Shown: piece by piece, positions 34,261 to 62,217 of the stretch
Position numbering within the stretch: position 1 is the stretch's first letter
Layout: every line of letters begins with the position of its first letter
Assembly: GCA_965250195.1 (NCBI GenBank)
Contig: OZ252295.1
Span: forward strand, 654,269 to 718,268
Reading direction: 5' to 3'
Source: Dehalococcoidia bacterium
Lineage (GTDB): Bacteria; Chloroflexota; Dehalococcoidia; Lucifugimonadales; UBA2962
Length of the DNA stretch: 64,000 nt
Made by a program: the position numbers and the translations under genes
The notes under the pieces: model-generated
Seen by the model: only the letters and a program-made list of their open reading frames with translations
The model's database searches: none
Told to the model about the DNA's origin: nothing

Positions 34261-35274
34261 GTGGCGTTTATGGCGGAGGCAGAGGCTACGGAGCACGGTG
34301 AAAAAGAGTCTTTCGAAGAGTTCCTGGGCTCGTTCGCATATGGGTCGAGGAATGACCTTCTGTTCAAGTTTTTGCACACCAGAAACGGGCTCAAGGAGCG
34401 GGGCGGAGCGGAGTTTTTCCGCCGGTTGCTGGAGCTCCTCGGCGATGCTTTCGATACCGGGGACTACACGGAGGTCATGGCGCACTGCGTCAACTCGCAG
34501 ATAGACGGCTACACTCCCGCGGAGGATGCCGAACCTCTTTGGAGCTACGACGAAACGCCCTGGAGCCCCCTGAAAAAGCCGCTTGGCGAGTCCCGGTTGG
34601 CGCTGGTGTCCACCGGCGGTCTGTTCGTAGATGGGGACGACCCGCTCCCCGACGCGCCTACCCAGCGCCAGGCCATTCCCCGCATCGACGAGTTTCTCCG
34701 AATGGAGCCAACTCTCTCTGAGATACCCCTCGGTTTGGACCGAAGCTCGCTGCGCGTTCGCCACCCCGGCTACGACATAAGGGGGACCGAACGCGACCAC
34801 AACGTAATCTTCCCCATCGACCGACTGACAGAGGCCCAGCAAGAGGGACTTGTGGGCGAGATCGCCGAGACGGCCTACTCGTTCGTCGGAGCCACCTCGC
34901 AGCTGCGCCTGAAAAAGCACGCCGCCCCCAGGTGGGCAGAGATGCTCATCGGACGGGGGGTCGACGCCGCCCTCCTCGTAGGTGCCTGACCCGAGTGCCA
35001 TGTGTCCGTAGGACACACAGCAAGGATTTTCGAAGAGGCCGGAATTGCCACCGTGTGCGTCTACATTCGGGCGTTCGCGCACCAGGCCCGGTTCATCAAG
35101 CCGCCTCGCGTGCTGGTGACCAGGCACGTCCTTGGGCGTACCATCGGGGCACCGGGGGACGTCGATCGCCAGTCGGAGGTCGTGGCCGCGGCACTCGACT
35201 TGCTGGCCACGGCTACCGAGCCGAACACGGTCAGGGAGCTGACCGCCGAGTACCGCACGGCGCCAGCCCCATAA
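34261..35274 (+). CDS. GrdB-family (glycine/sarcosine/betaine reductase protein B-like) selenoprotein; Sec encoded by in-frame TGA at 34987-34989
   Basis: Track ORFs 34261..34989 and 35002..35274 are in the same frame and are interrupted only by one TGA. Read-through gives ...GVDAALLVGA-U-PEC-HVSVGHTARIFEEAGIATVCVY..., with a UxxC motif and GrdB-like flanks. A hairpin follows directly. The start may be ATG 34270. Confidence 0.75.
34996..35022 (+). promoter_or_regulatory. candidate bacterial SECIS element
   Basis: UGC-CA-UGUGUCC-GUA-GGACACA-CA-GCA. It has a 7-bp upper stem (35001-35007 with 35011-35017), a CA/CA internal loop and a 3-bp lower stem. The apical G and U lie 22-23 nt from the U of the UGA. 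Confidence 0.6.
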
Positions 35275-35412
35275 CTCTGGTGCTCCAGACCACCCGCCCG
35301 TTCGTTGACCGGCTTACGGGTCGGTGCTAAATTCGACGCCATGGCCACCGGACAGCCCATTAAGCGCCCTACCCGGCGGGGCAAGACCTCGACCAGAGAG
35401 GTTCGCCTCTCC

Positions 35413-36102
35413 ATGGCGGCCGAGAACTACCTGGTTTCGATTTTCCAATTGGAGGAGGTCAGCATACGGGTGACCCCCACCCACCTGGCCGATCAGTTGA
35501 AGCGGTTGCCGGAGGGAGAGGGCCTGGGCACGTCGCTGCCCTCGGTTGGGGGCATGCTGCGGCGGCTGGTGCGCGAGGGCATGGTGGAGATGTCGCCAGA
35601 CAAGGACGTCGAGCTGACAACTACAGGCCGCCGGAGTGCCGAGAAGATCGTGCGGCGTCAACGATTGGCAAAGCGCATGGTGGTGGACTTGCTGGGACTG
35701 GAACCCTACAAGGCCCACGAGGAGGCGCATCGGCTGGAGCACGCGATCTCAGAGGAGTTGGCCGAGAAGATAGACGAGCGCCTGGGCCACCCCACCACCT
35801 GCCCGTTTGGACACCCGATCCCGGGTAGCGGCTTCGTCCGTGACCGGCTCACCGTTCCCCTGGAAAAGATAGTCTCGGGAACCACGGTCACCATCGACCG
35901 GATACCGGAGGACGACCGGGAGCTGCTCGAGTACTTCGTGGCCAGCGATGTCATGCCCGGTGTCAGCGCCCTGGTCAAGGACGCGGCGCCGTACCGGGGC
36001 GTGGTTACTCTGAACACGGGCGCCGGGGACGTGGTTGTTAGCTACGAGGTTGCCCAACGCATCTGGGTTACGCCGGTGGGCGTGCCCCAAACGCCGGGTT
36101 GA
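35413..36102 (+). CDS. DtxR/MntR-family metal-dependent transcriptional regulator with C-terminal FeoA/SH3-like domain
   Basis: AENYLVSIFQLEE..., dimerisation and metal-site region EEAHRLEHAISEEL...HPTTCPFGHPIP. ATG 35413 follows GAGAGG. The track ORF begins at TTG 35305. Confidence 0.75.
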   Translation: MAAENYLVSIFQLEEVSIRVTPTHLADQLKRLPEGEGLGTSLPSVGGMLRRLVREGMVEMSPDKDVELTTTGRRSAEKIVRRQRLAKRMVVDLLGLEPYKAHEEAHRLEHAISEELAEKIDERLGHPTTCPFGHPIPGSGFVRDRLTVPLEKIVSGTTVTIDRIPEDDRELLEYFVASDVMPGVSALVKDAAPYRGVVTLNTGAGDVVVSYEVAQRIWVTPVGVPQTPG

Positions 36103-36174: not shown

Positions 36175-36897
36175 TTAGCGGCCCTGCTTACCGAAGATGT
36201 ACTGGACGAGGTGCCAGCGATCTTCTTCCGTCAGTAGACTGCGAAACACTGGCATGACGGTCGGGTTGGGCTGGTCGACCATGGCCAGCGCGAAGCCGGT
36301 GCGAGAGCCGAAGGAGATCCAGGCGAATAGCTCGCCCTCGGTCGCCGTCGATCCGTCGCCATCCATCATGTTGGCCGGTGCCGCACTCCCTCCTGCGGTT
36401 AGAAGCTTGCTGGCCATCACCCCGTCGCCGCGCAGGCTTTCGCCGTGACAGACCATGCAGTTGACCCGGTACAGTTCGGCGGCTTCAGCCTGTTCGTAGG
36501 AGGCGGCGAAGGCCTCCGGCAGCGTCAGTGCAGGGTACTCCTCAGCGGTATATGAAATCTCCACCGGCGCCCTGACGGTCGTGTCCGGTCCGCCGATGGC
36601 CACCGAACCCTCGGGCGGCAGCAGCCTGGGACCCTCTTGTACCTTGAACGAGGGAGCGTAGTGCATCTCGGAGAACACGATAACGGCGTGGCTACCGGTC
36701 TCGGGGAAGGCGGGCAATTTGAAGTTGGCGACGCCCAGCACGCCGGTCTCGCCGGTGTTGTTGTTGTAGCAACCGGCGAGTGCGACGAGCGCCAACGCCA
36801 ACATGGGTAACACCCATGTTCGGCGCCAATTTGCCCCCGACAGGGCGGCTCTCGTGGGACCCGGGCGATCAGTCGAAATCGTTCTGCTCCCAGCCAC
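36175..36897 (-). CDS. actE: Alternative Complex III monohaem cytochrome c subunit (ActE-like lipoprotein)
   Basis: Lipobox LALVALAGC and a single haem motif CMVCH. It is the last gene of the cluster. The start is uncertain (GTG 36897 overlaps actD; ATG 36804 is an alternative). Confidence 0.7.
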   Translation of the reverse strand: MAGSRTISTDRPGPTRAALSGANWRRTWVLPMLALALVALAGCYNNNTGETGVLGVANFKLPAFPETGSHAVIVFSEMHYAPSFKVQEGPRLLPPEGSVAIGGPDTTVRAPVEISYTAEEYPALTLPEAFAASYEQAEAAELYRVNCMVCHGESLRGDGVMASKLLTAGGSAAPANMMDGDGSTATEGELFAWISFGSRTGFALAMVDQPNPTVMPVFRSLLTEEDRWHLVQYIFGKQGR

Positions 36898-37399
36898 GCT
36901 TAACGTCCTCGGCTCCGGCGCCCTTGAGGATCTCTTCAGCCTTCCCTACTCGCTCGGCGTCGGTGGTGACCGTAAGGCCGATGAACCCTTCGGTTACGCG
37001 GGTGTCGTAGGCGCCCATGAACACTCGTGGCAGCCGGGACTCGATGATGATGCCGATCACCGTGAAGATGATCGCCCCCAGCATCGTGCCCTCGTACATG
37101 ATGATCGACATGGGCGGAATGGACAGGATCGGCTTTCCGCCGGTGACCAGCGGGTAGGCGAGCTGCGTGCCGGCGGTGAGAATGAGGCCGATGATGAAGC
37201 CACAGGCGGCCCCGATCAACGGGTAGCGATAGAGGCTGTGATGAGTCTCGTCCTCACCGAACGCTCCCTCGGGGTAGGGGGTGCCGGTGAGTATCTCGTA
37301 CTCATTGGACTCGAACCCGCCCGCGCGAACGGCGTCGAGGGCGTCGGCCGCCTCATCGACTCCCTTGAACAGACCTATGACGCTTCTTCTGGCTATCAT
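36869..37399 (-). CDS. actD: Alternative Complex III membrane subunit ActD (DUF3341-type)
   Basis: The internal ATG at 37399 gives MIARRSVIGLFKGVDEAADALDAVRAGGF, followed by two TM helices. The track's basic N-extension is probably not translated. Confidence 0.7.
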   Translation of the reverse strand: MIARRSVIGLFKGVDEAADALDAVRAGGFESNEYEILTGTPYPEGAFGEDETHHSLYRYPLIGAACGFIIGLILTAGTQLAYPLVTGGKPILSIPPMSIIMYEGTMLGAIIFTVIGIIIESRLPRVFMGAYDTRVTEGFIGLTVTTDAERVGKAEEILKGAGAEDVKRGWEQNDFD

Positions 37400-37476
37400 G
37401 GCGAAACCTCGCCCTTTCCTCTTTTTAGCTGGACCGCTTTTTGCAGCCGCTTTTCTACCCGACTTATCGGGGGCCG

Positions 37477-38847
37477 TTACTCTCTTATCGAGGCCGGAAC
37501 CACCCGTCGGCCTATCATAATGGTGTCCCTCAATCGCGTCCCTTCCTTCATGTCGAAGACCGGTATCAGCGGGAAAATCTTGGCGAAGACGAGTATGCCC
37601 ATGCCGACGAATGCGAACGTGGAGGCCACCAGCAGTATCTCGATAACGCTTGGAGCGTAGCTGCCCCAATCGAATTCAAACGGCTGCCTGCGCTGCAAAC
37701 CGGGGATGATTATGAGGAACCGCTCCATCCACATGCCGATGTTCACCAGAATTGTGGTAAAGAACATCCACATGGGGCTGCGCCGGACCGCCTTAAACAG
37801 CCAGGCCGGAACCGGGATGAAGTACGCGGTAATCATGAACGTCAGGAACAGCGGACCCATGGGCAGTCTGAATACCTGCCACTCCCTCAGCGCCAGCTCC
37901 GGTCCCTCAAGCGTGTAGAGGGCGAAGATCCACTCCAGGGCGAAGAAGAAGAACCAGGTGGTCGCCACGATGATGAGCAGCCTGCCGATGGCGTCGAAAT
38001 GGTCGGGGGTTATGTACTTGTCCCACTTCCACAGCCACACCATCAGCGCCATGACCATGGCCACCGCCGAGACGCCGGAGTGTATGGCCCCGATGATGAA
38101 GTAAGGCGCGAATATCGTAGAGTGCCAGCCCTCCACGCCGATGGAGACGGCGAAGTCCCATGACACGATGCTGTGTACCGACACGAAGACGGGCAGGACC
38201 AGGGCCGAGAGCAATATGCCCGCGACGGCCTGAAGCTTCCACTGGCTTGGCGTGCCTCTGAAGCCCAGTGACATGCCCGCGTAGAACTTGCGCATGAGCC
38301 CTGAACTGCGGTCTCTCAGCGCCGCCAGGTCCGGTATCAGCGCGATGTAAACGAAGAGGGAGCTGCCGATCAGGTAGGTGCCGACCGCGGCCGGGTCCCA
38401 CACGAACGGGGACCGGATGTTGGGCCACACGCCCCTCTCGAAGTCGTAGGGCGCCACCCAGTAGAGCCGCCAGGGCCGCCCAACGTGGAACATGATGTTG
38501 GACAGGGCCGCCAGCAACGAGAATAACGTCAACACCTCGGCTGCACGAGTAACCGGGCGCCGCCACTCTGCCTGTGTCAACCGGAGGATGGCCGAGACCA
38601 TGATTCCAGCGTGGCTGATGCCGATCCAGAATACGAAGTTGGTGATGAGGAAGCCCCAGTAGACGGGCCGGTTCACACCCAGCACACCCACGCCCTGGTT
38701 CAACTCCCAACCGTACGCGCCTATGCCTGTCAGCCATACGAGGAACAAGAATCCGACGGCCCCCAGCCACCACTTGGGCATGCCGAGGACGTCCTTGAGC
38801 AGGCCGTGGTTGAGTTCTTTGTCCGTGGAGTACGTGTATTCCTGCAT
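37477..38847 (-). CDS. NrfD/PsrC-family quinol-interacting membrane subunit (ActC/ActF paralog, canonical-looking)
   Basis: GVNRPVYWGFLITNFVFWIGISHAGIMVSAILRL..WRRPVTRAAE... is typical of NrfD-like ACIII subunits. 456 aa, about 10 TM. Confidence 0.8.
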   Translation of the reverse strand: MQEYTYSTDKELNHGLLKDVLGMPKWWLGAVGFLFLVWLTGIGAYGWELNQGVGVLGVNRPVYWGFLITNFVFWIGISHAGIMVSAILRLTQAEWRRPVTRAAEVLTLFSLLAALSNIMFHVGRPWRLYWVAPYDFERGVWPNIRSPFVWDPAAVGTYLIGSSLFVYIALIPDLAALRDRSSGLMRKFYAGMSLGFRGTPSQWKLQAVAGILLSALVLPVFVSVHSIVSWDFAVSIGVEGWHSTIFAPYFIIGAIHSGVSAVAMVMALMVWLWKWDKYITPDHFDAIGRLLIIVATTWFFFFALEWIFALYTLEGPELALREWQVFRLPMGPLFLTFMITAYFIPVPAWLFKAVRRSPMWMFFTTILVNIGMWMERFLIIIPGLQRRQPFEFDWGSYAPSVIEILLVASTFAFVGMGILVFAKIFPLIPVFDMKEGTRLRDTIMIGRRVVPASIRE

Positions 38848-38853
38848 GCCCCG

Positions 38854-40266
38854 TTACTCCGGCTTACCCAGCACCATCACGACCGTGCGGTGGTACTTCT
38901 TATGCTCTTTGTAAAGGAGCAACTCTTTTTGCTCCCAGAGGTTGATAACCGGGATGACCCGGGTGGCCATCAGGTACAAAAACACCGCTCCGCCAATCGC
39001 ACCGACGACGATGAACACGTCCGCAACGTCCGGATAGATCGTGGGCGGAATTACCTCGATACCCTCGTGGTTGGCGGATTGATCGCTGACCGAGTAGGAC
39101 GCGACGTACAGCCGGACCCGGTCGAAGAAGGTTCCGATCAAGACAGAGACGGCGATGAGGGTCGGCCCCCAGATGCTGCGGCGCAGGAAGTTCCAAATCA
39201 TGGTGAAGAGCGGGAACACGAAGACCGTAACGAAAGTCAGGTAGAAGATGGGCATGTACGGCCCCTTGATGAACAGGTCGAATACCGCCTGCTCGTTGGG
39301 CTTTTTGCCGTACCACATCACGTTAAAGCTGGAGAACCAGAACCAGAACCAGAGCAGTGAGAGGGCGAACAGCAGCTTACCCAACCCCCAGAACTGGTCG
39401 TAGCCGATCTCCTTGTAACCACATACAAATCTTAGGAAGGCCATCGTCAACACGACCGTAGCCACTCCCGCCTGCAACGCGTTGGCGGCGTGAGTCGCCG
39501 GGTAGAGCGCGTCTATCCAGCCCGGCACCAGAGTCATGAGGAAGTCGATGGAGAACAGGAAGTGGACCGTGATGAGCATGATGAAGTAGAAGGCGCCGAG
39601 TATGCCGATGCGGTGCTTTTGCCAGTCCCACTGCGCCGCCGTGCCCTTCCAGCCTCGCGCCAGCCACTCGTAGCGCCGTCTTGCAGCGCTGCCCTTGGGC
39701 AAGCGGTCGCGAATTGCCGCGAGGTCCGGCAGCGCCGAGACCCAGAGCAGGAAAAAACCAACTATGACCAGCGAGACGATGGCGAGCGCCGTCCACAGGT
39801 GCGGCGAATATGGGTAGACCTCGCCGGGGTGGTAGAACCACATCGACCGCCTGCCGTCCTCTAGGCTGGGCAGAACCCAGAGCATGGGGATGAATAGCAG
39901 CAGGCTGATAAGACCCGCGACCGACCACATCTCAGCCGGACGGGAGATGATCCTGCGCCAGTGGCCCTTTGCGACCCTTGGCGCGATGGCGACCATCGGC
40001 GCGGCCGATGCGGTCGTGAGCATGAACGACAGGACCGCCGCCGTGTAGCCCCACTGGGCGGTGTCCGAGACGCCGTCGATGAGCCGCATGACCATGCCCA
40101 CCACGCCGAGCACGAGCAGCCCGCCGAAGACGGCCGACGCTATCCAGAAGGTGTTACCGGCTTTCTCCCGGCGACCCAACAGGTCGTCGGTAATGATCTC
40201 CGGACTGACCCACTCGGGGTTGTCGGCGTAGAAACCTAGGGGAGGGTGAGCGGACTCGCTAGCCAT
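38854..40266 (-). CDS. second, more divergent NrfD-family membrane subunit (ActC/ActF paralog)
   Basis: 470 aa polytopic protein. Its start overlaps the stop of the FeS subunit gene. It is hydrophobic throughout and shares NrfD-like spacing, but its motifs are weaker. Confidence 0.65.
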   Translation of the reverse strand: MASESAHPPLGFYADNPEWVSPEIITDDLLGRREKAGNTFWIASAVFGGLLVLGVVGMVMRLIDGVSDTAQWGYTAAVLSFMLTTASAAPMVAIAPRVAKGHWRRIISRPAEMWSVAGLISLLLFIPMLWVLPSLEDGRRSMWFYHPGEVYPYSPHLWTALAIVSLVIVGFFLLWVSALPDLAAIRDRLPKGSAARRRYEWLARGWKGTAAQWDWQKHRIGILGAFYFIMLITVHFLFSIDFLMTLVPGWIDALYPATHAANALQAGVATVVLTMAFLRFVCGYKEIGYDQFWGLGKLLFALSLLWFWFWFSSFNVMWYGKKPNEQAVFDLFIKGPYMPIFYLTFVTVFVFPLFTMIWNFLRRSIWGPTLIAVSVLIGTFFDRVRLYVASYSVSDQSANHEGIEVIPPTIYPDVADVFIVVGAIGGAVFLYLMATRVIPVINLWEQKELLLYKEHKKYHRTVVMVLGKPE

Positions 40267-41005
40267 GCGCCTCCTCCGTCACCTTCTGGGACTTATCGAC
40301 CTTCTTGAGGTAGACGACGCTCGGGTTTGTGCCGAGCTCTTCGAGCAGATGGTAGCCGCGCCCGTCGTGGCCGTGAAGTTCTTTCTCAGCCAGCTTCGCG
40401 ACCTGGCTGTCTTCGTCGTTAACGTCACCGAATACCAGCGTGCCGGTCGGGCAGGCGTTGACACACGCCGGGTTCAGCGCCCTGTCGCCGTCTTCGACGA
40501 CGGTGCCGTCTCGCTTGGCGTTCCGGCCGGTTCGTCGGATGCGCTGGATGCAGAAGGTGCACTTTTCCATGATGCCCCGGCTGCGCACAGTCACGTCCGG
40601 GTTGAGCTGGTTTTTCAGGCTCTCGGGCCACTCCGGCTCCCAGAAGTTGAAGAATCGCACCTGGTAGGGGCAGTTGTTTCCACAGAACCGGGTGCCGATG
40701 CACCGGTTGTAGACCTGAACGTTGAGGCCCTCGGCGTTGTGGTAGGTGGCGTACACAGGGCAGACGGGCTCACAGGGAGCGTCGTCACAGTGCTGGCACA
40801 GCACCGGAATGAAGCGCGCCTTGACGTCTGGGTACTCGCCCTCCCAGGTGCGCTCAATGCGTATCCACTGGTTGGCGCGCTGCTGATTGAACAGGCCCTC
40901 GTCGTTAATGGGGATGTTGTTTTCCGACTGGCATGCGATCACGCAGGCCTGGCAACCGGTGCACCGGTCGATGTCGATAACCATTCCCCATTTTTCGTCC
41001 GCCAT
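40259..41005 (-). CDS. actB2: 4Fe-4S ferredoxin-type iron-sulfur subunit (ActB2-like)
   Basis: Cys clusters CTGCQACVIAC, CQHCDDAPCEPVCP, CIGTRFCGNNCP, CTFCIQR and CVNACP. Confidence 0.85.
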   Translation of the reverse strand: MADEKWGMVIDIDRCTGCQACVIACQSENNIPINDEGLFNQQRANQWIRIERTWEGEYPDVKARFIPVLCQHCDDAPCEPVCPVYATYHNAEGLNVQVYNRCIGTRFCGNNCPYQVRFFNFWEPEWPESLKNQLNPDVTVRSRGIMEKCTFCIQRIRRTGRNAKRDGTVVEDGDRALNPACVNACPTGTLVFGDVNDEDSQVAKLAEKELHGHDGRGYHLLEELGTNPSVVYLKKVDKSQKVTEEAHG

Positions 41006-41020
41006 TTTGCTTATCTTCCC

Positions 41021-43324
41021 TTAGCTGTCGGTCGGCGTGATCTTGATTATTCTCTGCTCTTCGTCTCGGGCGAAGTCCGGGTTATTGTTCTCGAACTTCG
41101 GCAGTCTCTTCCAGTCGCCGACCTTCTCGATTTTCACCCTGGTGGCGGCCCAGGCCAGCGCGCCCGACTCATCGTCGAGACGGGGAGCGAGTATGGACAG
41201 CGCGTTCCCCCCTCGGCCTTCGGCGTAGCGTCCGCCGGCCCTGTGGCCCTGGCCAAGCGGAATCGAAACTACGTCAGGCGGCACCCCGGGATGGGGATAT
41301 GCGATGGCCGTAATGCCATCCCCGGCAAGGCCATTGGAGCCGTGCGCCGAAACAACTCTGAGTACATCGCCTTCGCGTATGTCCATACGCTCGGCGACTT
41401 TGTGGTTGATCTCGACCCAGGTCTCCCAGGTAGCCGAGGTAAGCGGGTCCGGCAGTGCTTGCAACCAGGGAAGATGAGCGCCTTGCCCCTCACCGAGGGA
41501 CGTTGACGAGAACGGAACGAGGTGGAAGGTCTCACCTTCTGCCCCGGCGGGTCCGGCGAATTCGGGCTCCTGCGCCTCGGCGGGCAGCTCCTTTGTGGTG
41601 GCTGCCGGGCCGTTATAAAGCGAGGTAGTGTCCCACCAGCCACCACGCTGTAGGACACCCGCCCGGAAGGCGCGGAAATCGTTGGCTCTCACCGAGCCCC
41701 GGCCCAGATCGAACAGCTGCCGGGCGGCGTTTTCGACAAGTTCCTTCATATTTCCTGCTCCAAGGCCCAGGTCCAGCCCCAGCTCGCCGGCGATCGCCAT
41801 GAGGGCGTCAGGCATGGACCTGGTTCCCAGCTCATCACCACGATTTTCGAAGAACGGCCGCACCACCGGCTGCTGGAAGCCCACCACCTGGTGACCCGGT
41901 CCGGCGGCCGGGACGTCTGTGTCCCACTCCTCGAGCGAGGTGTGCGTCGGTAGGATCAGGTCGGCCATGGAGGTCGTGTCGTCCAGATGGCTGGCGAAGC
42001 TAAAGATGAACGGCACGTTGAACGAGGCCTCTCGCAGGCCCATCGCGTCCGGCAGGCCGTACATGGGGTCTGACCCATCGATCAAAAGGGCCTTGACTTT
42101 ACCGTCAGTCATCGCCCGTATGAGGTCGCGCCAATCCCCCGCCGAGCCCACCTTCAGGTTGGCCTCGGCACTGACCAGATCATCGGTCGCGGGAGGGGGG
42201 TTGAATACTAGTCCTCCGCGAGAATGCACCGCCCCAACAAGGTAGTTGAGGGAGTAGATGGCCGTCAGGTTGAACAGGCCGTTGGTGTGTGCGCCGGCGG
42301 ACCCACCACCGATCGCGAGGGCCGGCCGGTTGGTGGCGAACTGCTCTGCGATACGTTTTATCTTCTCTGCCGGGACTCCGGTCTCTTCGGCCACGAGCTC
42401 GGGCGCCCAGCGGTCGATATCCACGTTGCCCGCACCGGTTATGTCTCGGGCCGGAATGGGGTCACCGAGGCCGCCGGTGACGATTACTTGAATCATGCTA
42501 AGAGCTAGCAGGCCCTCGCGGCCGGGCTTTACGAAAACGTTCTCGTCGGCGTTGGCACCGGTCATCGAGAATCGAGAGTCGACGTGTACCAGCGTTCCCC
42601 GCGTCCTGTCGCCCTGGCGGAACTCACCGTACGCTCGCATGTAGCGCACGGGCGAGATCCAGGTGTTGAGGAAGTCCGCTCCGAACGAGAGCAGATATTT
42701 GGTGTTTTCTATGTCGAATTCGGGGAGCCTATCCTGGTCGAACAGGTTTTTCATTACCGTCCGCAGGTTCGTGTTTTCCAGCGCCTCGTACCCGATGTGG
42801 GTCCCCCGGTACGCATCGACGAAGCTGTCCACGACGACGCCGGCGTGCGAGACCATGGGTCCGGTTACAACGACCACCTCACGGTTCTGCCGGGCGTCAC
42901 TGACCTGTCCGAGTTGATGGGAGATTCGGGCAACGCCGTCCGACCACCCGATCTCCTCCCAGTTGCCCGCGCCCCTCTCGCCGACTCGGGCCATCGGCCC
43001 CTTTATGCGGTCGGGGTTGTACAGGTCCTGTAAGAGCGCCTCGCTGCGGGGGCTATGCCGTCCCTGGTTGATCGGGTAGTCGACGTTGCCTTCGACCTTC
43101 TTGGCCCGCCCTTCCATCACCCGAACAACAACGCCCTCTGAGGTCGGGAAGCCACGGCTGATCGTCGCGTACCAGTTGTCCAGCCCCGTTACGAGGTCCT
43201 CCGGCATGCCCACCGGAGACTGTACGAACAGCTCGTCTTCGGGAATGCCGCAAGCGGCGGCTATGACGGCGCCGAGCGTGCCACCGCCGACCGTGGTCAG
43301 GAACTGTCGTCTGGTTAGAGCCAT
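41021..43324 (-). CDS. actB1: molybdopterin-oxidoreductase-like subunit with Tat signal (ActB1-like; probably cofactor-less)
   Basis: Twin-arginine signal MALTRRQFLTTVGGG. It has the CISM catalytic-subunit fold pattern, but the positions of the N-terminal FS0 cysteines are non-Cys (YATISRGFPTSEG...NQGRHSPRSEA). Confidence 0.8.
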   Translation of the reverse strand: MALTRRQFLTTVGGGTLGAVIAAACGIPEDELFVQSPVGMPEDLVTGLDNWYATISRGFPTSEGVVVRVMEGRAKKVEGNVDYPINQGRHSPRSEALLQDLYNPDRIKGPMARVGERGAGNWEEIGWSDGVARISHQLGQVSDARQNREVVVVTGPMVSHAGVVVDSFVDAYRGTHIGYEALENTNLRTVMKNLFDQDRLPEFDIENTKYLLSFGADFLNTWISPVRYMRAYGEFRQGDRTRGTLVHVDSRFSMTGANADENVFVKPGREGLLALSMIQVIVTGGLGDPIPARDITGAGNVDIDRWAPELVAEETGVPAEKIKRIAEQFATNRPALAIGGGSAGAHTNGLFNLTAIYSLNYLVGAVHSRGGLVFNPPPATDDLVSAEANLKVGSAGDWRDLIRAMTDGKVKALLIDGSDPMYGLPDAMGLREASFNVPFIFSFASHLDDTTSMADLILPTHTSLEEWDTDVPAAGPGHQVVGFQQPVVRPFFENRGDELGTRSMPDALMAIAGELGLDLGLGAGNMKELVENAARQLFDLGRGSVRANDFRAFRAGVLQRGGWWDTTSLYNGPAATTKELPAEAQEPEFAGPAGAEGETFHLVPFSSTSLGEGQGAHLPWLQALPDPLTSATWETWVEINHKVAERMDIREGDVLRVVSAHGSNGLAGDGITAIAYPHPGVPPDVVSIPLGQGHRAGGRYAEGRGGNALSILAPRLDDESGALAWAATRVKIEKVGDWKRLPKFENNNPDFARDEEQRIIKITPTDS

Positions 43325-43358
43325 CTAGTGACCGATTTCGCAACCGGAGTGTTTCGCA

Positions 43359-43982
43359 TTAGTAGTGGCACGTCGTGCAGTCTGTGGGTGCGCTGTTGTC
43401 CCGGTGACAATCGACGCAGTTGCCCATTTTCAGGGGTTCGACCTGGCGCACTTTCTCCATTTTTGCCACGGAGCCGTGACAGGTGGAGCACACGGCAGAC
43501 GCCGGGATGCCGTCCTTTTCAGAGAAAAACGAGATGTGGGCCTGGTGGTTGAATCGGACGTGGTCCGGCACCCTGTGAACCCTGACCCAGTCGATGGGCT
43601 GGCCCAACGCCGCGTACTCGCGCAGCTTTTCTACCTCGGCAAGGCCGTCCCCAACAGCGGCGTGGCAGGTCATGCAGAGGCCGACTGACGGCACCGTGGC
43701 CGCCGGGCCCTCGGTGACGTTGCGGTGACAGAAGGTGCAGTCCAGGCCGATGCCGCCGTCTTCAACAGTGCCGGCATGAACGGTGTGCGGGAAGGCTATG
43801 GGCTGGTCCGGGCCCTCGGTATAGCCGAAGACGCTAAGCGGCCGACCAAGCCACGCGGAGATGACGAAAAGGAGAACGAATACCACCGCGGCGAGGCTGA
43901 CGAGGCTGACAACTCCAAGCACTCCGAGGAGCGCCATTTGCCTGGGCTCGGGTCTCTTAGGTTGGAAATCGCCCGGAAGCAA
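43359..43982 (-). CDS. actA: pentahaem cytochrome c subunit (ActA-like)
   Basis: One N-terminal TM helix, then five CxxCH motifs: CTFCH, CMTCH, CSTCH, CVDCH and CTTCH. The start is uncertain (TTG 43982 or ATG 43937). Confidence 0.85.
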   Translation of the reverse strand: MLPGDFQPKRPEPRQMALLGVLGVVSLVSLAAVVFVLLFVISAWLGRPLSVFGYTEGPDQPIAFPHTVHAGTVEDGGIGLDCTFCHRNVTEGPAATVPSVGLCMTCHAAVGDGLAEVEKLREYAALGQPIDWVRVHRVPDHVRFNHQAHISFFSEKDGIPASAVCSTCHGSVAKMEKVRQVEPLKMGNCVDCHRDNSAPTDCTTCHY

Positions 43983-44014
43983 GTATCGGTGTTAAGGGCT
44001 CAGATTGCGGGGGG

Positions 44015-44305
44015 TTAAATCCAGTAGTTCGGCCAGAAGTCGCGCAAGACGCCAGCATGATCGACGACTCGCGACAGCATGTACATGGCGGCGCCGAAAG
44101 AGCTGATCGCCACCGCGTAGAACATGGGCCTGGCCTTCGATAGCCCCTGGCTCAAGTGGCGCGAACGTATGAAAGACTGCAACCAGTTGTGGGCGATCAG
44201 CATGTTGGTGGCGAAGAAAACGATGAACGCCACCATGATCCAGAGATTGGTAAGCAAGTGTCCGAGTTCAGACCACTGTGGATGCGCTAGAACTTCCGGG
44301 TCCAC
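44015..44305 (-). CDS. small two-TM membrane protein of unknown function, immediately upstream of actA
   Basis: 96 aa with hydrophobic helices LWIMVAFIVFFATNMLIA and MFYAVAISSFGAAMYML. It is on the same strand as actA and its stop lies 32 nt from the longest actA start. Confidence 0.5.
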   Translation of the reverse strand: MDPEVLAHPQWSELGHLLTNLWIMVAFIVFFATNMLIAHNWLQSFIRSRHLSQGLSKARPMFYAVAISSFGAAMYMLSRVVDHAGVLRDFWPNYWI

Positions 44306-52430: not shown

Positions 52431-53831
52431 TCACTCGTCCAGGTGAGGCGCCCCGAGGCGGTCGAGTTCGGCCCTCATCTCAGCAAGTTCGCCCGCGGGG
52501 GGCTCGTGCCCCCCGTAAAACGCGGCATTGAAAGCCTCGGTCGATATGCCGGCAAGGTCGCCGGGCACGAGTCGAGCCAACTCTTTTCGGTACTCGCCCG
52601 GCGTCGACGACCGGGGCCTGTCGCCACCCCGAGCACCGGCGTGCAGCAAGAGTCTGTAGTAGGCGCGCATGGCCGCCACGACGCCGGGCGGACCGGACGG
52701 CAGCTCGATCCGGGCTCCGGCTCGGCGACGACGGAGCGCGGAGGGCAGCAGGCCGAAGAGCATGTTGGCTGCGTCCAAAAATGGGTCGGATTCCCCGAGC
52801 ACGGACTCCCGGATCGCGTCAACCTGTTGGGGGCGTCTGCGGCGGCGGCGGCGCAGGGCGCGGGCGACTATGTACAGGACGATGGCGACAACAACGGCCA
52901 ACAACGTCCACTCCAGCGCGATGACGTAAAGCGGGGTGGGACCGGCCTCGCGCTGTAAGAACTGCTCCCCGAACGATTCTCCGAGGGGGGTTAACTCCCG
53001 GCCCGGCTCGTCGCCGGAAAGCAGACCTAGGAACAGGCTGACGACTCCGGTTATCACCCATGCCACCGGGACGATGAACACGAAAAACAGGACCGTGCCC
53101 ATCCAGCCGAGTACCTCGCTGACCGGTGCCCGGACTGTTTCCAGGAACTCTTTGCGCACGAGGCTGAATGCAAACCCGACAGCCAGCACCCCAACGACCG
53201 TGGCTCCGACTACTCGGAGCCAGATCGCGGCCCCCTTTTCCCCTCCCGCTCCCCGGCCCAGCCTCGATATCCCGAGTCCCGCCAGGGTGCCGGCGAAAAA
53301 GACGAACAGCGCGCCGAAGGTGCTGAGCGCCTCTTCCGAGACCGCGTCCACCAGCACGGCGATAGCCATGAGCAACATGCCGAACTTGTAGCTCCGGTTC
53401 AGTGACTCTGAGGGCTCTTCAGCCGAGCCCAGTACGCCGCCGCGCCACCACAGCAGTAAGGCTGCGAAGGCTCCCACCGTGGCAGAGAAATTGGCGCCCT
53501 CGACCTCGGAGCCGCCGGAGGCGAACCGGGGCCATGCCAGGTCCCAAAACGCCTCTGACCCGGCGACCTGAGTGCTTATCGTCAAGTAAATGGCTGTCGC
53601 CCCGGCGGCGATCTGAAGGACGTACGGCGCCAGCCCTCCGACCGGCAGCCCCGAGAGCACGCGAGTGGTTAGCGCCCCGGCGGCCATCAACGCGAGCACG
53701 GCCAGCCACCCGAGCGGACTGCCGTGCGTTCCCATGCCCACGCCGATGATGCCCAGCAGTGCGAACAGCCATGCGCTCTCCGCCGCCACCAGTGAGGCGA
53801 TTACCGCCCGGTCGCGAGAAGCGGTGCTCAT
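52431..53831 (-). CDS. polytopic membrane protein with C-terminal DUF4129-like domain
   Basis: About 8 TM helices and an RRRRRRR stop-transfer sequence, followed by MRAYYRLLLHAGARGGDRPRSSTPGEYRKEL... typical of DUF4129. It is the last gene of the MoxR-DUF58 triad. Confidence 0.65.
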   Translation of the reverse strand: MSTASRDRAVIASLVAAESAWLFALLGIIGVGMGTHGSPLGWLAVLALMAAGALTTRVLSGLPVGGLAPYVLQIAAGATAIYLTISTQVAGSEAFWDLAWPRFASGGSEVEGANFSATVGAFAALLLWWRGGVLGSAEEPSESLNRSYKFGMLLMAIAVLVDAVSEEALSTFGALFVFFAGTLAGLGISRLGRGAGGEKGAAIWLRVVGATVVGVLAVGFAFSLVRKEFLETVRAPVSEVLGWMGTVLFFVFIVPVAWVITGVVSLFLGLLSGDEPGRELTPLGESFGEQFLQREAGPTPLYVIALEWTLLAVVVAIVLYIVARALRRRRRRRPQQVDAIRESVLGESDPFLDAANMLFGLLPSALRRRRAGARIELPSGPPGVVAAMRAYYRLLLHAGARGGDRPRSSTPGEYRKELARLVPGDLAGISTEAFNAAFYGGHEPPAGELAEMRAELDRLGAPHLDE

Positions 53832-55060
53832 GCCCCGGACCCGGACCGTTCGTCGAACGCCGCCATGTGTGTGCCGATGTCGTGCAGCACGACGCCCGCC
53901 GGGACAACGGGCGCCGGGGCTTCGCCGACGTAGACCAGCGACACCGGGTGGGCCCGGGCCCGGAGCCTGCCCAGGACATCGATTAGCTCATCCGAGTAAT
54001 GGGCCACCACCAACAACACGGTGGCGCCGTGCGGCAGGGTGGTCATCTTCTCTTCCAAATGCGCCGCCATATTCGCCAGCGAGATGGCCTGCAACGTCGC
54101 CAGTGTCTCGAGCACCGCCTTTAGCTGCGGCTGGCTGCGCGACGGCCGTAGCTCCGCCGGACGGTCCGTAACCATGGGAACGCCGTTGGAGAGCAGGCCC
54201 AGCGAGTAGCCCTGTTCCACGCAATACGAGGCAAGAGATGCGCCCGCCGTTATCGCCCTCTCCAGGTGAATTGGCGAATACCCCTGCCAGTAGTGAGGGG
54301 TCGTCTCCACCGACACCGCCAGCACGACAGTTACGTTGGCGCTGGGGTCGAAGGTGCGCACCCTGAGCCTCTGGCTCCGGGCGGTCGCCTTCCAGTCGAT
54401 GGTGTTGAGGGGGTCGCCGGGGACGTAGTCCCTGGGCGCCGCCGGCCGAGACGGGTCCTGGAAGATGCGTGAGCCACCCCTCACCTCCCCCAGTGGCCGA
54501 CCGCCAGGTATGCCAATGTCCGGGAGCGGCACAACGCGGGGGTAGACGAGTACCCCGTCCCTGGCTTCCACTCGCATGCGGGAGTCGAACAGGCCGAACA
54601 TGTCCCCCGAGTCGACCTGCGCCGGACCCAATCTGAAGTAGCCGCGCCGGTTGAATTTTACCGAGTAGTTCCAGCGGATCCGCTCGTACCAGCCAACGGA
54701 GGTTCGGTGCTCCAGCGTGGACGAGTTTGGGCTGGCGCTGTGAGTCACTCTCGCACCTTCTACCGTCACGGCGTCGGGGATGGCGTCCTCGGTTCTCACC
54801 CAGGCCAGGGGGACCGGCTTTCGGTTGGTGAGCACCACCGACATAGGCACGCTCTCACCTATGAACACGCGCCGCTTGGGCAAGATGCGCTCGTACGTGA
54901 CGTGGTCGAGTGAGACCCGGCCCCACAGGTAGCTGATGCCGGTCATGAGCAGGCCCATGGCACCGAAGGCGATGACGATGCTCTGCCCGGCGAAGACGCC
55001 GATGATGATCAGGACGACAAAGAGCCCGGTCCACAGCTCCTGCCACAGTTGGGACAGCAA
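53828..55060 (-). CDS. DUF58 domain protein (vWA-like)
   Basis: Two N-terminal TM helices. Motif FQDPSRPAAPRDYVPGDPLNTIDWKATARSQRLRVRTFD is the DUF58 signature. The stop overlaps the next gene's start. Confidence 0.8.
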   Translation of the reverse strand: MLSQLWQELWTGLFVVLIIIGVFAGQSIVIAFGAMGLLMTGISYLWGRVSLDHVTYERILPKRRVFIGESVPMSVVLTNRKPVPLAWVRTEDAIPDAVTVEGARVTHSASPNSSTLEHRTSVGWYERIRWNYSVKFNRRGYFRLGPAQVDSGDMFGLFDSRMRVEARDGVLVYPRVVPLPDIGIPGGRPLGEVRGGSRIFQDPSRPAAPRDYVPGDPLNTIDWKATARSQRLRVRTFDPSANVTVVLAVSVETTPHYWQGYSPIHLERAITAGASLASYCVEQGYSLGLLSNGVPMVTDRPAELRPSRSQPQLKAVLETLATLQAISLANMAAHLEEKMTTLPHGATVLLVVAHYSDELIDVLGRLRARAHPVSLVYVGEAPAPVVPAGVVLHDIGTHMAAFDERSGSGA

Positions 55061-55065
55061 GTGCT

Positions 55066-56046
55066 CTAGTCGGCGAGGTTGCAGGGCGTCGGCGGGTCGC
55101 GCTCTATTGGCACGGGCACGGCGGCGAGCACCTCGGCGACGATGTCCGACCCGACGACGCCGCGCAGCCGAGAGCCCCCGCCCATGATCATGCGATGGCC
55201 CAGCACCGGCGAAGCGAGCGCCTTGACGTCGTCGGGCAGCACGTAGTCTCGACCGACAACGGCCGCTCTCGCCTGTGCGGTCTTGTAAAGGGCCAGTCCG
55301 GCCCGGGGGCTGGCGCCCAGCTCGACACCGTCGTGGTCGCGTGTAGCCCGCACCACCTCAGCGACGTAAGCCCGCACGAGTTCATCGACGCGTACGCCCG
55401 GCACGGCGGCGCGGGCCTGGCCAATGGCTGCGGCGTCCGTGACGGGAGCTAAAGTCGGTGCCCCAGAGGGATCGTCAAATCGCAGGAAGATGTCGAGTTC
55501 TTCGTCTTTCGTCGGATACCCCAACTCGACACGGACCATGAACCGGTCCAACTGTGCTTCAGGAAGGGGGAAGGTGCCCTCCAGCTCGATGGGGTTCTGG
55601 GTGGCCAGCACGAGAAACGGGTCGGGCAGCGGCATGGTGTCGCCGTCGATGGTGGCCTGTTGTTCTTGCATCGCCTCCAGCAACGCCGATTGTGTTCGGG
55701 GAGTCGCCCGGTTTATCTCGTCGGCCAACAGCACCTGACTGAACACCGGCCCGGCCCTGAACTGGAAATCGCCGGTCTTCTGGTTGAAGAAGTTGACGCC
55801 GAGGACATCGGAGGGCATGAGGTCGGAGGTGAATTGGATGCGCTTGAAGGTGCAGCCCAGCGAGTCGGCCAGCGCACGGGCGAGGGTCGTCTTGCCGATA
55901 CCGGGTACGTCCTCGATGAGCACGTGTCCACCGCACAGCAGGGCTATGAGGGCGAGTTCGATGGCCTCGCCTTTGCCCACGACCACCCGCTGGACGTTTT
56001 CTCGAACGGATTTTACGAGGGTCTGTATTTGCCCGACATCTGCCAT
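55066..56046 (-). CDS. MoxR-family AAA+ ATPase
   Basis: HVLIEDVPGIGKTTLARALA (Walker A), LLADEINRATPRTQSALLEAMQE (Walker B/sensor) and the LATQNPIE motif. Confidence 0.9.
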   Translation of the reverse strand: MADVGQIQTLVKSVRENVQRVVVGKGEAIELALIALLCGGHVLIEDVPGIGKTTLARALADSLGCTFKRIQFTSDLMPSDVLGVNFFNQKTGDFQFRAGPVFSQVLLADEINRATPRTQSALLEAMQEQQATIDGDTMPLPDPFLVLATQNPIELEGTFPLPEAQLDRFMVRVELGYPTKDEELDIFLRFDDPSGAPTLAPVTDAAAIGQARAAVPGVRVDELVRAYVAEVVRATRDHDGVELGASPRAGLALYKTAQARAAVVGRDYVLPDDVKALASPVLGHRMIMGGGSRLRGVVGSDIVAEVLAAVPVPIERDPPTPCNLAD

Positions 56047-58068: not shown

Positions 58069-58122
58069 GGCTCCGTATTTTTTGGGGCTCTCTAGTCCAC
58101 GGCTCTCTTGGGCCCCAGACTT

Positions 58123-58193
58123 TGCCCGGTGGTGTAGTGGTAGCACAGGGGCCTTTGGAGCCTCTAACCCAGGTTCGAATCCTGGCCGGGCAG
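58123..58193 (+). tRNA. tRNA-Gln (anticodon UUG)
   Basis: Hand-folded cloverleaf: acceptor TGCCCGG/CCGGGCA (U1-A72, G73), D arm GTGT-AGTGGTA-GCAC, anticodon arm GGGGC-CTTTGGA-GCCTC, and T arm CCAGG-TTCGAAT-CCTGG. CCA is not encoded directly after G73. Confidence 0.85.
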
Positions 58194-58222
58194 CACCAAA
58201 ATTCATTAACGAAGCCGAGGCG

Positions 58223-59461
58223 ATGCCAAACAACATCTATAAATTTCTGAACCCGGTACACGCACCGTCGATTGGCACTGGACGCCGGTTGCCCTCGGCC
58301 ATCGCGGCTCTGGTCGCCTTGTCCCTGGTCGTCCTGGCACTGGCGGCCTGCAGCAGCTCGCCCGCCACCGACTCGATTTCTACGAATGAAGAGGGCGCTG
58401 GAGGTGATGTAGCAGGCGGGTCGGTAGCCTCATCTGGACCCGTTGGAAAATTTGTCCTTACCGGCGAGATGGGCAATGACCGCCAGTACCACGGCGCGGT
58501 CAAGCTGTCCGACGGCCGGGTCCTGGCCGTGGGCGGCCGGGGTAAGGGCGTCAGCGAATGGCCCATAGTGCACCAGACCGCCGAGATCTACGACCCCGCC
58601 ACGGGCAGGTGGACGAGCACGGGCAGCACGCTTGAGGACCGCCAGTTCCCGACTATTGCGCTGTTGCCCGATGGCAAAGTGTTGGTCGCCGGGGGCAACG
58701 ACAACCGGCTCGTCCCCCACAAGACCTCTGAGTTGTGGGATCCGGCGACGGGCGAATGGACCATGACCGGCAAGATGCTCAAGCACCGGGAACTGGGGGC
58801 ATCGGTCGTTCTGCTCGACGGTCGCATCATAGTCACGGGCGGCAAGTCCAAGACCTTCCAGCAGCAGGCCCACGCCGAGATCTACGACCCGGTGTCTGGC
58901 GAGTGGACCCTGACGAGCGAGATGAGCATCGGTCGGGCCCTGCACACCGCCACGCTCCTATCAGACGGGCGCATCCTCGTTACCGGAGGCGGAAAAGTGG
59001 ACGGCCCTTACTACGAGACGGCCGAACTTTACGACCCGGCGACGGATAGCTGGTCGGGCGCCAGGGAAATGGGCACAGGCAGGGCTCTGCATACCGCAAC
59101 ATTGCTGTCCGACGGCCGGGTGCTGGTAGCCGGGGGAGTTGGCAAACGGTCGTCGGCGGACGTATACGACCCGGCGACCAACTCGTGGTCCGACGCAGGG
59201 GAGATGTCGATATCCCGTGCTGAACACACCGCCACTTTGTTGACGGACGGCCGGGTGCTCATAGCAGGGGGAGTGGGCAAGCGCCAATCGGCCGAACTGT
59301 ACGACTCGGTCACCAACTCCTGGCAGTCGGCCGGGGACATGAACTTCGACCGGTACCGGTATACGGCGAACCTGCTCGACGACGGACGGGTGCTGCTGGT
59401 GGGCGGTCAGAGCGCCATCGCCGTGACCGTCCTGGCCGAGACGGAACTGTACACGCCGTAG
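58223..59461 (+). CDS. Kelch-repeat beta-propeller lipoprotein (7 blades)
   Basis: ATG 58223 follows GAGG. Lipobox LALAACSSS. Seven repeats of the type E(L/I)YDPATxxWxxxxxMxxxRxxHTATLLxDGRVLVxGG. The track ORF start (58082) overlaps the tRNA. Confidence 0.85.
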   Translation: MPNNIYKFLNPVHAPSIGTGRRLPSAIAALVALSLVVLALAACSSSPATDSISTNEEGAGGDVAGGSVASSGPVGKFVLTGEMGNDRQYHGAVKLSDGRVLAVGGRGKGVSEWPIVHQTAEIYDPATGRWTSTGSTLEDRQFPTIALLPDGKVLVAGGNDNRLVPHKTSELWDPATGEWTMTGKMLKHRELGASVVLLDGRIIVTGGKSKTFQQQAHAEIYDPVSGEWTLTSEMSIGRALHTATLLSDGRILVTGGGKVDGPYYETAELYDPATDSWSGAREMGTGRALHTATLLSDGRVLVAGGVGKRSSADVYDPATNSWSDAGEMSISRAEHTATLLTDGRVLIAGGVGKRQSAELYDSVTNSWQSAGDMNFDRYRYTANLLDDGRVLLVGGQSAIAVTVLAETELYTP

Positions 59462-62117: not shown

Positions 62118-62146
62118 TTGACGACCCCGGTTGCCCGTGATACAAC
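62118..62146 (+). promoter_or_regulatory. candidate sigma-70-type promoter (TTGACG-N17-TACAAC)
   Basis: Read directly. It lies about 70 nt upstream of the 62218 start. Confidence 0.4.
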
Positions 62147-62217
62147 GTGCTCACCCCGGCGAGGCGGTGCCACCGCCGCTGCGGCGCCAGAGTAACGGTG
62201 ATTTCGAGGAGGCAGCA

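Follow-up and report, generated by a model that had tools for sequence, protein, structure and literature searches.

A conserved in-frame TGA in a Dehalococcoidia genome probably encodes selenocysteine in an orphan member of the GRDB superfamily

The genome of a Dehalococcoidia bacterium (assembly GCA_965250195.1, contig OZ252295.1, positions 654,269 to 718,268) contains two open reading frames (ORFs) that lie in the same frame and are interrupted only by a TGA codon. We call the 64,000-nt stretch that was analyzed the window, and coordinates given without a locus name refer to it. The ORFs, at 34261..34989 and 35002..35274, raise the question of whether they are two genes or one gene in which the TGA at 34987-34989 is decoded as selenocysteine (Sec). 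The original prediction, made from the sequence alone, was a read-through protein of 337 amino acids that belongs to the GrdB family, with a hairpin just downstream resembling a bacterial selenocysteine insertion sequence (SECIS). Its coordinates for the ORF pair were exact, and its length is correct when counted from the GTG at 34261, where the mechanical ORF starts. Homologues share a start at the ATG at 34270 (MAEAEATEH...), which makes a product of 334 amino acids likely and puts the recoded position at residue 240. The terminator of the full gene is the TAA at 35272-35274 and the residues across the Sec site are LLVGA-U-PECHVSVGHTAR. The current database product, P0001 (239 aa), corresponds to 34270-34986. 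From comparisons among sequences we conclude, with a probability of roughly 0.92, that this is a single gene for a 334-residue selenoprotein, that its UGA is decoded as Sec via a SECIS, and that the protein is an orphan member of the GRDB superfamily.

We scanned one genome per species for homologues. This yielded 208 loci with relatives, and the best 80, which we examined, match across essentially all 334 residues. The hosts belong to the Chloroflexota (Dehalococcoidia, Anaerolineae, and others), the Actinomycetota (Acidimicrobiia, Nitriliruptorales, and others), Acidobacteriota, SAR324, Spirochaetota, Desulfobacterota, Gemmatimonadota, and Armatimonadota. The nearest relatives are in metagenome-assembled genomes of Dehalococcoidia and are 78-88% identical. 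TGA was found at this codon in 84 of 84 copies, comprising the window and 83 loci that represent at least eight phyla, and was followed by P-x-C-H-[V/M/A]-S-V-G-H, in which the Cys of P-x-C is invariant. Rather than ending at the TGA column, all 84 copies continue in frame, as expected if the codon is recoded. Of 81 distinct loci, 80 have an in-frame tail of 84-116 codons; in the remaining one, L068, an additional in-frame TAG occurs 14 codons past the UGA (L068:6676-6720). Across the 81 loci, purifying selection acts on the tail.

A single-base change would be enough to create such a TGA in a pseudogene, or by sequencing or assembly error in a Cys codon (TGC or TGT), and isolated variants do occur. 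Of the 120 database homologues that scored best, 118 stop exactly at the TGA column, at lengths of 183-263 aa, and the two that are full-length each carry a codon one nucleotide from TGA. One of these (P0009, L084:1400-1450) has AGA (Arg) at the site and an intact hairpin, and the other (P0091, L085:2640-2680) has TGG (Trp), a partly decayed hairpin, and an odd EVEVEV insertion. These two variants and that of L068 are either sequencing errors or genes being lost. Against an error or a pseudogene at the locus itself, the same TGA is present in 84 independent assemblies, the tail is under purifying selection, and G+C content at third codon positions (GC3) is of the coding type on both sides of the TGA (0.77 and 0.80). 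We consider this explanation next to impossible.

The pairing of Sec and Cys forms is a standard criterion of the selenoproteome literature (PMC13188914). The database homologue P0009, which is 62% identical and has AGA at the site, served as a proxy for an exhaustive search and for a structure model. An exhaustive HMMER search with full-length P0009 returned 1299 relatives and was the only search to bring up Cys forms. Five representatives (P0137, P0139, P0141, P0144, and P0147) have the same N-terminal domain as the window protein and are continuous through the site with Cys in place of Sec, as in ...ILVPV-C-PVCHVSIGH of P0137. Many core-only relatives (~250-400 residues) have CxxC at the site. 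When 15 full-length relatives were aligned, Cys stood opposite the UGA in 12 and S, D, or N in the other three, and the proteins were continuous across the junction. The alignment of homologues thus places Cys where the window has UGA, in line with the idea that Sec and Cys share this column.

Folding of 34984-35035 reproduced the predicted hairpin. It has an upper stem of 7 bp (35001-35007 with 35011-35017), a GUA loop (35008-35010), a symmetric CA/CA internal loop below the upper stem, and a lower stem of 3 bp (34996-34998/35020-35022), with a minimum free energy (MFE) of -14.5 kcal/mol. Published criteria for bacterial SECIS (bSECIS) elements are a loop of 3-9 nt, an upper stem of 4-16 bp, a spacing of 16-37 nt from the UGA, a G in the first two loop positions, and an MFE <= -7.5 kcal/mol (PMC13188914 Fig. 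2). With its 3-nt GUA loop, 7 bp, spacing of 18 nt, and MFE given above, the window hairpin lies within all of these ranges. Counting the U of UGA as 1, its loop G and U are nucleotides 22 and 23, compared to G23/U24 in the SECIS of E. coli fdhF. The placement of the loop thus agrees with the fdhF-type geometry that had been proposed, but the bulged U17 of fdhF, which is needed for binding of E. coli SelB, has no equivalent in the seven uninterrupted pairs of the window's upper stem. The stem-loop begins 11 nt past the UGA only when the lower stem is ignored.

To score this structure across orthologues we used an ungapped alignment of 81 distinct 45-nt segments starting at the TGA, in which the 11 pairs, including the lower stem (columns 10-12 with 34-36), were examined. 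Standard pairs occupied 89.7% of cells versus 20-55% when the 3' partner was slid by 1-3 columns. Pair 16-30 was never broken (71 G-C, 6 A-U, and 4 G-U), and pair 15-31 included 46 C-G, 15 U-A, and 3 U-G. There were 21 doubly changed cells compared to 6.2 expected, a number reached in 0 of 500 shuffles. The codons of the stem, CAY-GTG-TCC / GTN / GGA-CAC-NNN, are also constrained at synonymous sites. The stem Val was GTG in 74 of 74 cases versus 28.9 expected from each gene's own codon usage, and the stem Gly was GGA or GGG in 81 of 81 versus 33 expected, though GGC is the commonest Gly codon in these genes. We counted events on a neighbor-joining tree for which the hairpin-encoded peptide was masked. 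On this tree, the change from Val to Met (GTG to ATG) arose six separate times, and each time the paired His codon was CAT rather than CAC (Fisher p = 6e-7); the nearest neighbors of each of these six A-U loci are G-C. Covariation was also seen between the wobble base of the upstream His codon and position 1 of the codon with which it pairs (Fisher p = 2e-8). Six independent switches from G-C to A-U with no mismatch bear out the prediction that the hairpin is conserved and covaries in orthologues.

The Cys-form genes provide a further comparison. Four of them retain 7, 4, 6, and 4 of 8 upper-stem pairs compared to 6-8 in all Sec forms. They have GTC where the Sec forms invariably have GTG, and one has an AUU loop in which the G is lost. 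Their peptides are relaxed at the hairpin (HLTIGH, HMSVAH, and HLTISQ). Since Cys forms need no SECIS, the decay of the hairpin in these genes is, like the synonymous sites and the independent switches above, a control that separates the RNA signal from the protein signal. Judged by these patterns of substitution, the hairpin is maintained by selection as an RNA structure. Together, the comparisons among loci demonstrate that the UGA is under selection, that the hairpin is kept as RNA, and that the tail is translated.

Two classes of apical loop were observed in alignment columns 21-25 (window 35007-35011) when loci such as L014, L022, L024, L025, L030, and L031 were compared. The first is a C-G-closed triloop, C-GUN-G, found in 53 loci and mostly GUG. 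The second is a pentaloop, G-GUC-G, found in 26 orthologues. In the pentaloop class a Ser codon TCG was always followed by the Val codon GTC (26/26, Fisher p = 1.6e-14), and the wobble base of the Ser codon at the loop changed about eight times on the tree. GGUC is the loop sequence of fdhF. By analogy, the coupling of the Ser and Val codons in this class may preserve a contact with SelB.

The hairpin also bears on the possibility that the TGA is a true stop and that the locus yields two products, a GRDB-like protein of 239 residues and another of 90 residues whose start is GTG 35002. Gene callers annotate the locus in this way. As predicted, they split or truncate the gene: the truncation of 118 of the 120 best database homologues is described above, several assemblies list the tail as an ORF of its own, and a search with the tail alone retrieved only separately called tail ORFs of 76-110 aa. 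In six loci there is an ATG at the would-be start of the tail. However, each of these ATG codons comes with a compensating change in the RNA stem, a sign of RNA structure rather than of selection for a start codon. In addition, the P-x-C-H encoded by the four codons between the TGA and this 'start' is present in all 84 copies, none of which shifts the frame, the Cys-form relatives are continuous across the junction, and alignments to the PrdB and GrdB profiles extend past the site into the tail. Two separate products are thus extremely unlikely.

Profile scans were run with the read-through protein carrying C in place of U. Pfam GRDB (PF07355) matched with 43.6 bits (gathering cutoff 22), and aligned residues 92-237 to positions 210-345 of the 347 in the profile. 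Its end lies three residues short of the TGA column, as is also the case for GrdB entries that are truncated. The best NCBIfam match was PrdB (TIGR04483, E 4.9e-32), in which residues 97-330 align to positions 19-236 of 238; the homology thus continues past the Sec site and takes in the tail to its end. The PrdB score of 111.3 bits did not reach the equivalog cutoff of 300. Nor were cutoffs reached for TIGR01918, the glycine/betaine/sarcosine/D-proline reductase selenoprotein B subfamily (40.9 versus 65.45 bits), or for GrdB TIGR01917 (38.4 versus 602.2 bits), which matched at profile positions 267-429 only. No curated NCBIfam model scored the read-through protein above its cutoff, and GrdB, PrdB, GrdF, and GrdH were all missed widely. 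The local matches to GrdB, GrdF, and GrdH (TIGR01917, NF040794, and NF040795) extend across the Sec site with E-values of 1e-9 to 1e-12, but score 36-47 bits against cutoffs of 600-800. The window protein lacks a counterpart of the first ~210 residues of GrdB and does not have the full ~430-residue GrdB architecture. The UxxC motif is retained, as had been predicted, with U240-P-E-C243 at the position homologous to PrdB. The motif of GrdB is UxxCxxC (PMC13188914), whereas the window has UxxC-H-V-S (U-P-E-C-H-V-S); the second Cys is absent in all 84 copies. Thus, of the proposed GrdB-family identity, membership in the GRDB superfamily stands, but the best match is to PrdB, all equivalog cutoffs are missed, and the GrdB motif is lacking.

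Residues 1 to ~95 had no match in Pfam or NCBIfam. This N-terminal domain conserves E-x-F-x-x-S-F-x-Y-G-S-R-x-D-L-x-F-K-F-L, and core-only relatives of ~250 aa lack it. An AlphaFold2 model of P0009 (predicted TM-score 0.79, mean predicted local distance difference test score 76.9) has a helical N-terminal domain, with helices at 9-14, 24-30, 36-56, and 60-74, and an alpha/beta core. The Sec column lies in a loop between strand 230-234 and helix 241-253; in this model, the strand-loop-helix placement is the one typical for a redox-active UxxC pair. We considered the conserved Y-G-S-R of the N-terminal domain as a self-processing pyruvoyl site that replaces PrdA, and rejected this idea since the Ser is T, R, or E in some members. 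Residues 211-276 (34900-35097), which form the strand-U-x-x-C-helix, showed a sub-threshold likeness to the UGSC family (PF24696 / NF041046; E 0.013; 16 versus 25 bits), an abundant marine UxxC selenoprotein. We claim no membership in this family, but the two abundant marine UxxC selenoprotein families may be distantly related.

Several results weigh against the conclusion that the locus is a selenoprotein gene of this superfamily. On its own, the window hairpin barely beats chance (z = -1.94, with an equally good fold in 7 of 200 shuffles), and Rfam gave no SECIS match, either at the gathering threshold or at permissive E-values. The stem overlaps a strongly conserved peptide, and part of the pairing is a by-product of protein conservation. 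No selA, selB, selD, or tRNA-Sec was found within the 64-kb window, in which the only tRNA is tRNA-Gln, or adjoining the gene in the 60 loci scanned (with ARAGORN for the tRNA). Searches of the PDB returned no relative by sequence and none by fold (best TM-score 0.27, nothing with E <= 0.001). Lastly, the catalytic mechanism given below is drawn wholly from analogy with PrdB and GrdB, whose curated thresholds the protein fails, and is offered as inference only. Since the single-sequence fold is only modestly better than chance, the significance of the hairpin comes from the comparative data and not from the window alone. Sec machinery is usually unlinked to selenoprotein genes, so the absence of tRNA-Sec beside the gene at 60 loci is uninformative. 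The GrdB/PrdB fold has no solved representative in the PDB, and thus no structural mechanism can be transferred.

The lack of Sec machinery in the 64 kb would also fit a UGA that is read through without Sec, either as Trp, Cys, or Arg by near-cognate decoding or by lineage-specific reassignment, with a hairpin that stimulates this without SelB. The natural Trp (TGG) and Arg (AGA) variants at the site can be read in the same way. However, TGA ends 6 of 25 other window genes that were checked, including rplC and the neighboring dtxR-like gene, and is the real terminator of 34 of 81 orthologues. Thus, there is no genome-wide reassignment of TGA. Moreover, relatives that do not have UGA have Cys in a CxxC motif, which is the signature of Sec/Cys exchange; the hairpin has the loop G, stem length, and spacing of a SelB-dependent bSECIS; and the TGG variant, with its decaying hairpin and insertion, resembles gene decay and not an equivalent form. 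The Chloroflexi, Actinobacteria, Acidobacteria, Spirochaetes, and Deltaproteobacteria are all reported to include Sec-decoding members (PMC1794560). Read-through without Sec is therefore very unlikely, and we favor decoding as Sec.

We then asked whether this selenoprotein is a true B subunit of a Stickland-type D-proline or glycine/betaine/sarcosine reductase, with the pyruvoyl subunit (PrdA/GrdE) encoded elsewhere in the genome. PrdB is the best profile match and is covered over nearly the whole model, the UxxC is at the homologous position, and several homologues are annotated as PrdB by the Joint Genome Institute. On the other hand, the scores fall short both for PrdB (111 versus 300 bits) and for the selenoprotein B subfamily model (41 versus 65), the protein has an extra N-terminal domain, and it lacks the UxxCxxC of GrdB. 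In known systems the pyruvoyl proprotein PrdA, PrdB, and the maturation factor PrdH are co-encoded, and maturation of PrdA needs PrdB (PMC11229817). The same work used amber suppression to place Sec in PrdB. To look for partners, we clustered all ORFs within 5.5 kb on either side of the gene in the 81 loci, and discarded the two largest clusters, which were antisense shadow ORFs of the gene itself. No neighbor family occurred in more than 9 of 81 loci and none was of the PrdA/GrdE type. In the 64-kb window, no Grd or Prd component was found among the probable genes outside the ribosomal-protein block. In particular, prdA, prdH, prdC, prdD, prdE, and prdF were not found in the window neighborhood, and grdA, grdE, grdC, and grdD were found neither in the window nor in the 81 neighborhoods. 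Respiratory genes such as those for alternative complex III adjoin the gene, and do not suggest an amino-acid-fermenting anaerobe. With no PrdA/GrdE gene beside any copy, the reaction is probably not that of a Stickland D-proline or glycine reductase, and we regard a true B subunit as unlikely.

We tentatively suggest instead, as a possibility that we hold at somewhat less than even odds, that these partner-less PrdB-like proteins with an extra N-terminal domain form a distinct, almost obligately Sec-dependent class that carries out a pyruvoyl-independent reaction unrelated to Stickland fermentation. If so, the class would be widespread in respiring Chloroflexota, Actinomycetota, Acidobacteriota, SAR324, and others, and its reaction might be, for example, a reductive cleavage or a detoxification step that relies on selenol/thiol chemistry, with thioredoxin and NADPH for recycling.

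For the selenoprotein itself we propose the following scheme. During translation, the UGA at 34987-34989 would be decoded as Sec, as the comparative evidence suggests, and the hairpin 18 nt downstream, with G-U in its apical loop, would act as a bacterial SECIS. By the established bacterial pathway, a complex of SelB, GTP, and Sec-tRNA(Sec) would bind the apical loop and deliver Sec at the paused ribosome, and translation would then proceed through the 94-codon tail. By analogy with PrdB and GrdB only, the Sec240 selenolate may be the catalytic nucleophile and Cys243 may resolve the intermediate to a selenenyl-sulfide, which a thiol/dithiol or NADPH-linked system might re-reduce.

Proteins of this kind have been noted before. 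In the Sargasso Sea data of 2005, 42 genes were assigned to 'proline reductase PrdB', which ranked third in abundance among selenoprotein families (PMC1088965). In the Global Ocean Sampling data of 2008, PrdB, described as pfam07355 with a UxxC motif, was among the top families with 235 Sec forms versus 110 Cys forms (PMC2398784). Non-Stickland bacteria, among them Anaeromyxobacter and Geobacter, have also been listed as having PrdB (PMC1794560). The marine 'PrdB' set (PMC1088965, PMC2398784) and the window gene share the same Pfam family and the same UxxC Sec motif, and like the window gene the marine set comes from non-clostridial environmental bacteria, was missed or truncated by ORF callers, and has Cys homologues. 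Most simply, the window gene is one more member of this set, to which it is matched by family and motif description. A UxxC selenoprotein of the GRDB family that is found in environmental bacteria and overlooked by gene callers is thus already known. However, the marine papers use only the name of the clostridial enzyme, and the N-terminal domain, the absence of PrdA, and the covariation of the SECIS are not described there. In our literature search we found no paper that separates an orphan subfamily from true PrdB or addresses its function. PrdB of Clostridioides difficile and Clostridium sticklandii shares with the window protein the UxxC Sec position, a tail of ~90 residues, and a bacterial SECIS just downstream, but the window protein is ~95 residues longer at the N-terminus, scores 111 versus 300 bits, and has no prd genes nearby. 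Thus, pyruvoyl-dependent D-proline cleavage is not supported.

These results have consequences for annotation. If the two annotated fragments of 239 aa and 90 aa are one selenoprotein, the organism must decode Sec. The 118 of 120 closest entries that are truncated at the same codon go by names such as 'PrdB', 'GrdB family protein', or 'hypothetical', and it is probably wrong to read such entries as Stickland-type proline or glycine reduction in Dehalococcoidia, Anaerolineae, Acidimicrobiia, and SAR324. The alignment of 81 sequences, with the SECIS inside the H-V-S-V-G-H codons, could support dedicated protein and covariance models for annotation. Should the tentative reading as a distinct class hold, the abundant 'PrdB' of the ocean would be this other enzyme and not proline reductase.

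Table. Coordinates in the window of the proposed selenoprotein gene, its parts, and other features discussed.
Feature	Position	Strand	Remarks
Complete gene, predicted selenoprotein	34270..35274	+	334 codons including UGA-Sec, plus TAA stop
N-terminal domain, ~95 residues, subfamily-specific	34270..34554	+	no Pfam/NCBIfam model covers it; predicted helical
PrdB-like (GRDB superfamily) core, residues 97-330, spans Sec site	34558..35259	+	TIGR04483 match
Predicted UGA Sec codon U240, first residue of U-P-E-C redox motif	34987..34989	+	conserved TGA, Cys alignment
TGC, Cys243	34996..34998	+	candidate resolving Cys of UxxC; also 5' side of SECIS lower stem
Predicted bacterial SECIS hairpin, within codons for C-H-V-S-V-G-H-T-A	34996..35022	+	fold, covariation, synonymous constraint
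94-codon tail translated only upon UGA decoding	34990..35271	+	called as separate 90-aa ORF or missed
DtxR/MntR-type metal-dependent repressor with FeoA domain	35305-36102	+	directly downstream
Alternative complex III (Act) operon	36175-44305	-	cytochrome c, ActD-like, NrfD-like ActC, 470-aa membrane protein, multihaem cytochrome, 96-aa ORF
ActB part, FeS (Fer4)	40259-41005		apparently separate ORF
ActB part, molybdopterin-like	41021-43324		apparently separate ORF
Ribosomal protein L13	11768-12502	-	244 residues
Phosphotriesterase-family (PF02126) paralogue 1	7282-8235	+	
Phosphotriesterase-family (PF02126) paralogue 2	62131-63270	+	
MoxR-type AAA+ ATPase (AAA_3) + DUF58 + DUF4129 cluster	52431-56046	-	common MoxR-associated module
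Kelch-repeat mechanical ORF	58082-59461	+	TTG start at 58082
tRNA-Gln(UUG)	58123-58194	+	

The gene lies between a divergently transcribed rpsL-rpsG-fusA cluster and the DtxR-type repressor, with the alternative-complex-III operon next, an arrangement common only to the closest Dehalococcoidia relative (L001). The repressor may well have a transcript of its own, given a match to a sigma-70-like promoter at 35305-35333, and its true start is probably an ATG near 35342. The Act operon, in which ActB appears to be divided between two ORFs, points to a respiratory and not a Stickland-fermenting lifestyle.

Across the 81 loci, sporadic neighbors of the gene included an S-adenosylmethionine methyltransferase, a class-I pyridine-nucleotide disulfide oxidoreductase, glucose-6-phosphate dehydrogenase, 6-phosphogluconolactonase, and 6-phosphogluconate dehydrogenase, as well as a glutaredoxin-thioredoxin reductase fusion and an AhpC/TSA_2 protein. 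These hint weakly at thiol and NADPH redox, but they may reflect clade-specific synteny only, and since they are too sporadic (at most 9 of 81 loci) no pathway can be assigned. The contexts of the Cys-form genes vary and have no common partner, in settings that are catabolic or redox-related. At L087:2516-4343 and other Cys-form loci, one apparent operon comprises an AhpD-like carboxymuconolactone decarboxylase (CMD) protein, a glyoxalase, and the GRDB-like gene, and is preceded by a TetR regulator. A second Cys-form gene follows a copper amine oxidase, and a third lies within a cluster for a cytochrome P450, a luciferase-like monooxygenase, and a thiolase.

We scanned the window for further genes interrupted by TGA and obtained shadow-frame artifacts only. 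Elsewhere in the window, ribosomal protein L13 has a C-terminal extension of ~100 residues, unusual for a bacterial rplM product, with a nucleic-acid-binding motif of the Rho_N / HeH (SAP-like) type at its end (Pfam E 2e-8). The two phosphotriesterase-family paralogues, together with genes listed at 1351-2706, 8472-9872, and 10110-11288 with a family III CoA-transferase, an amidase, an enolase-superfamily (MR_MLE) enzyme, and short-chain dehydrogenases/reductases, make up a paralogue-rich catabolic repertoire. The MoxR-type ATPase cluster is also present. Finally, the Kelch-repeat ORF overlaps the tRNA-Gln gene on the same strand, and the real start of the Kelch gene must therefore be downstream of the tRNA.

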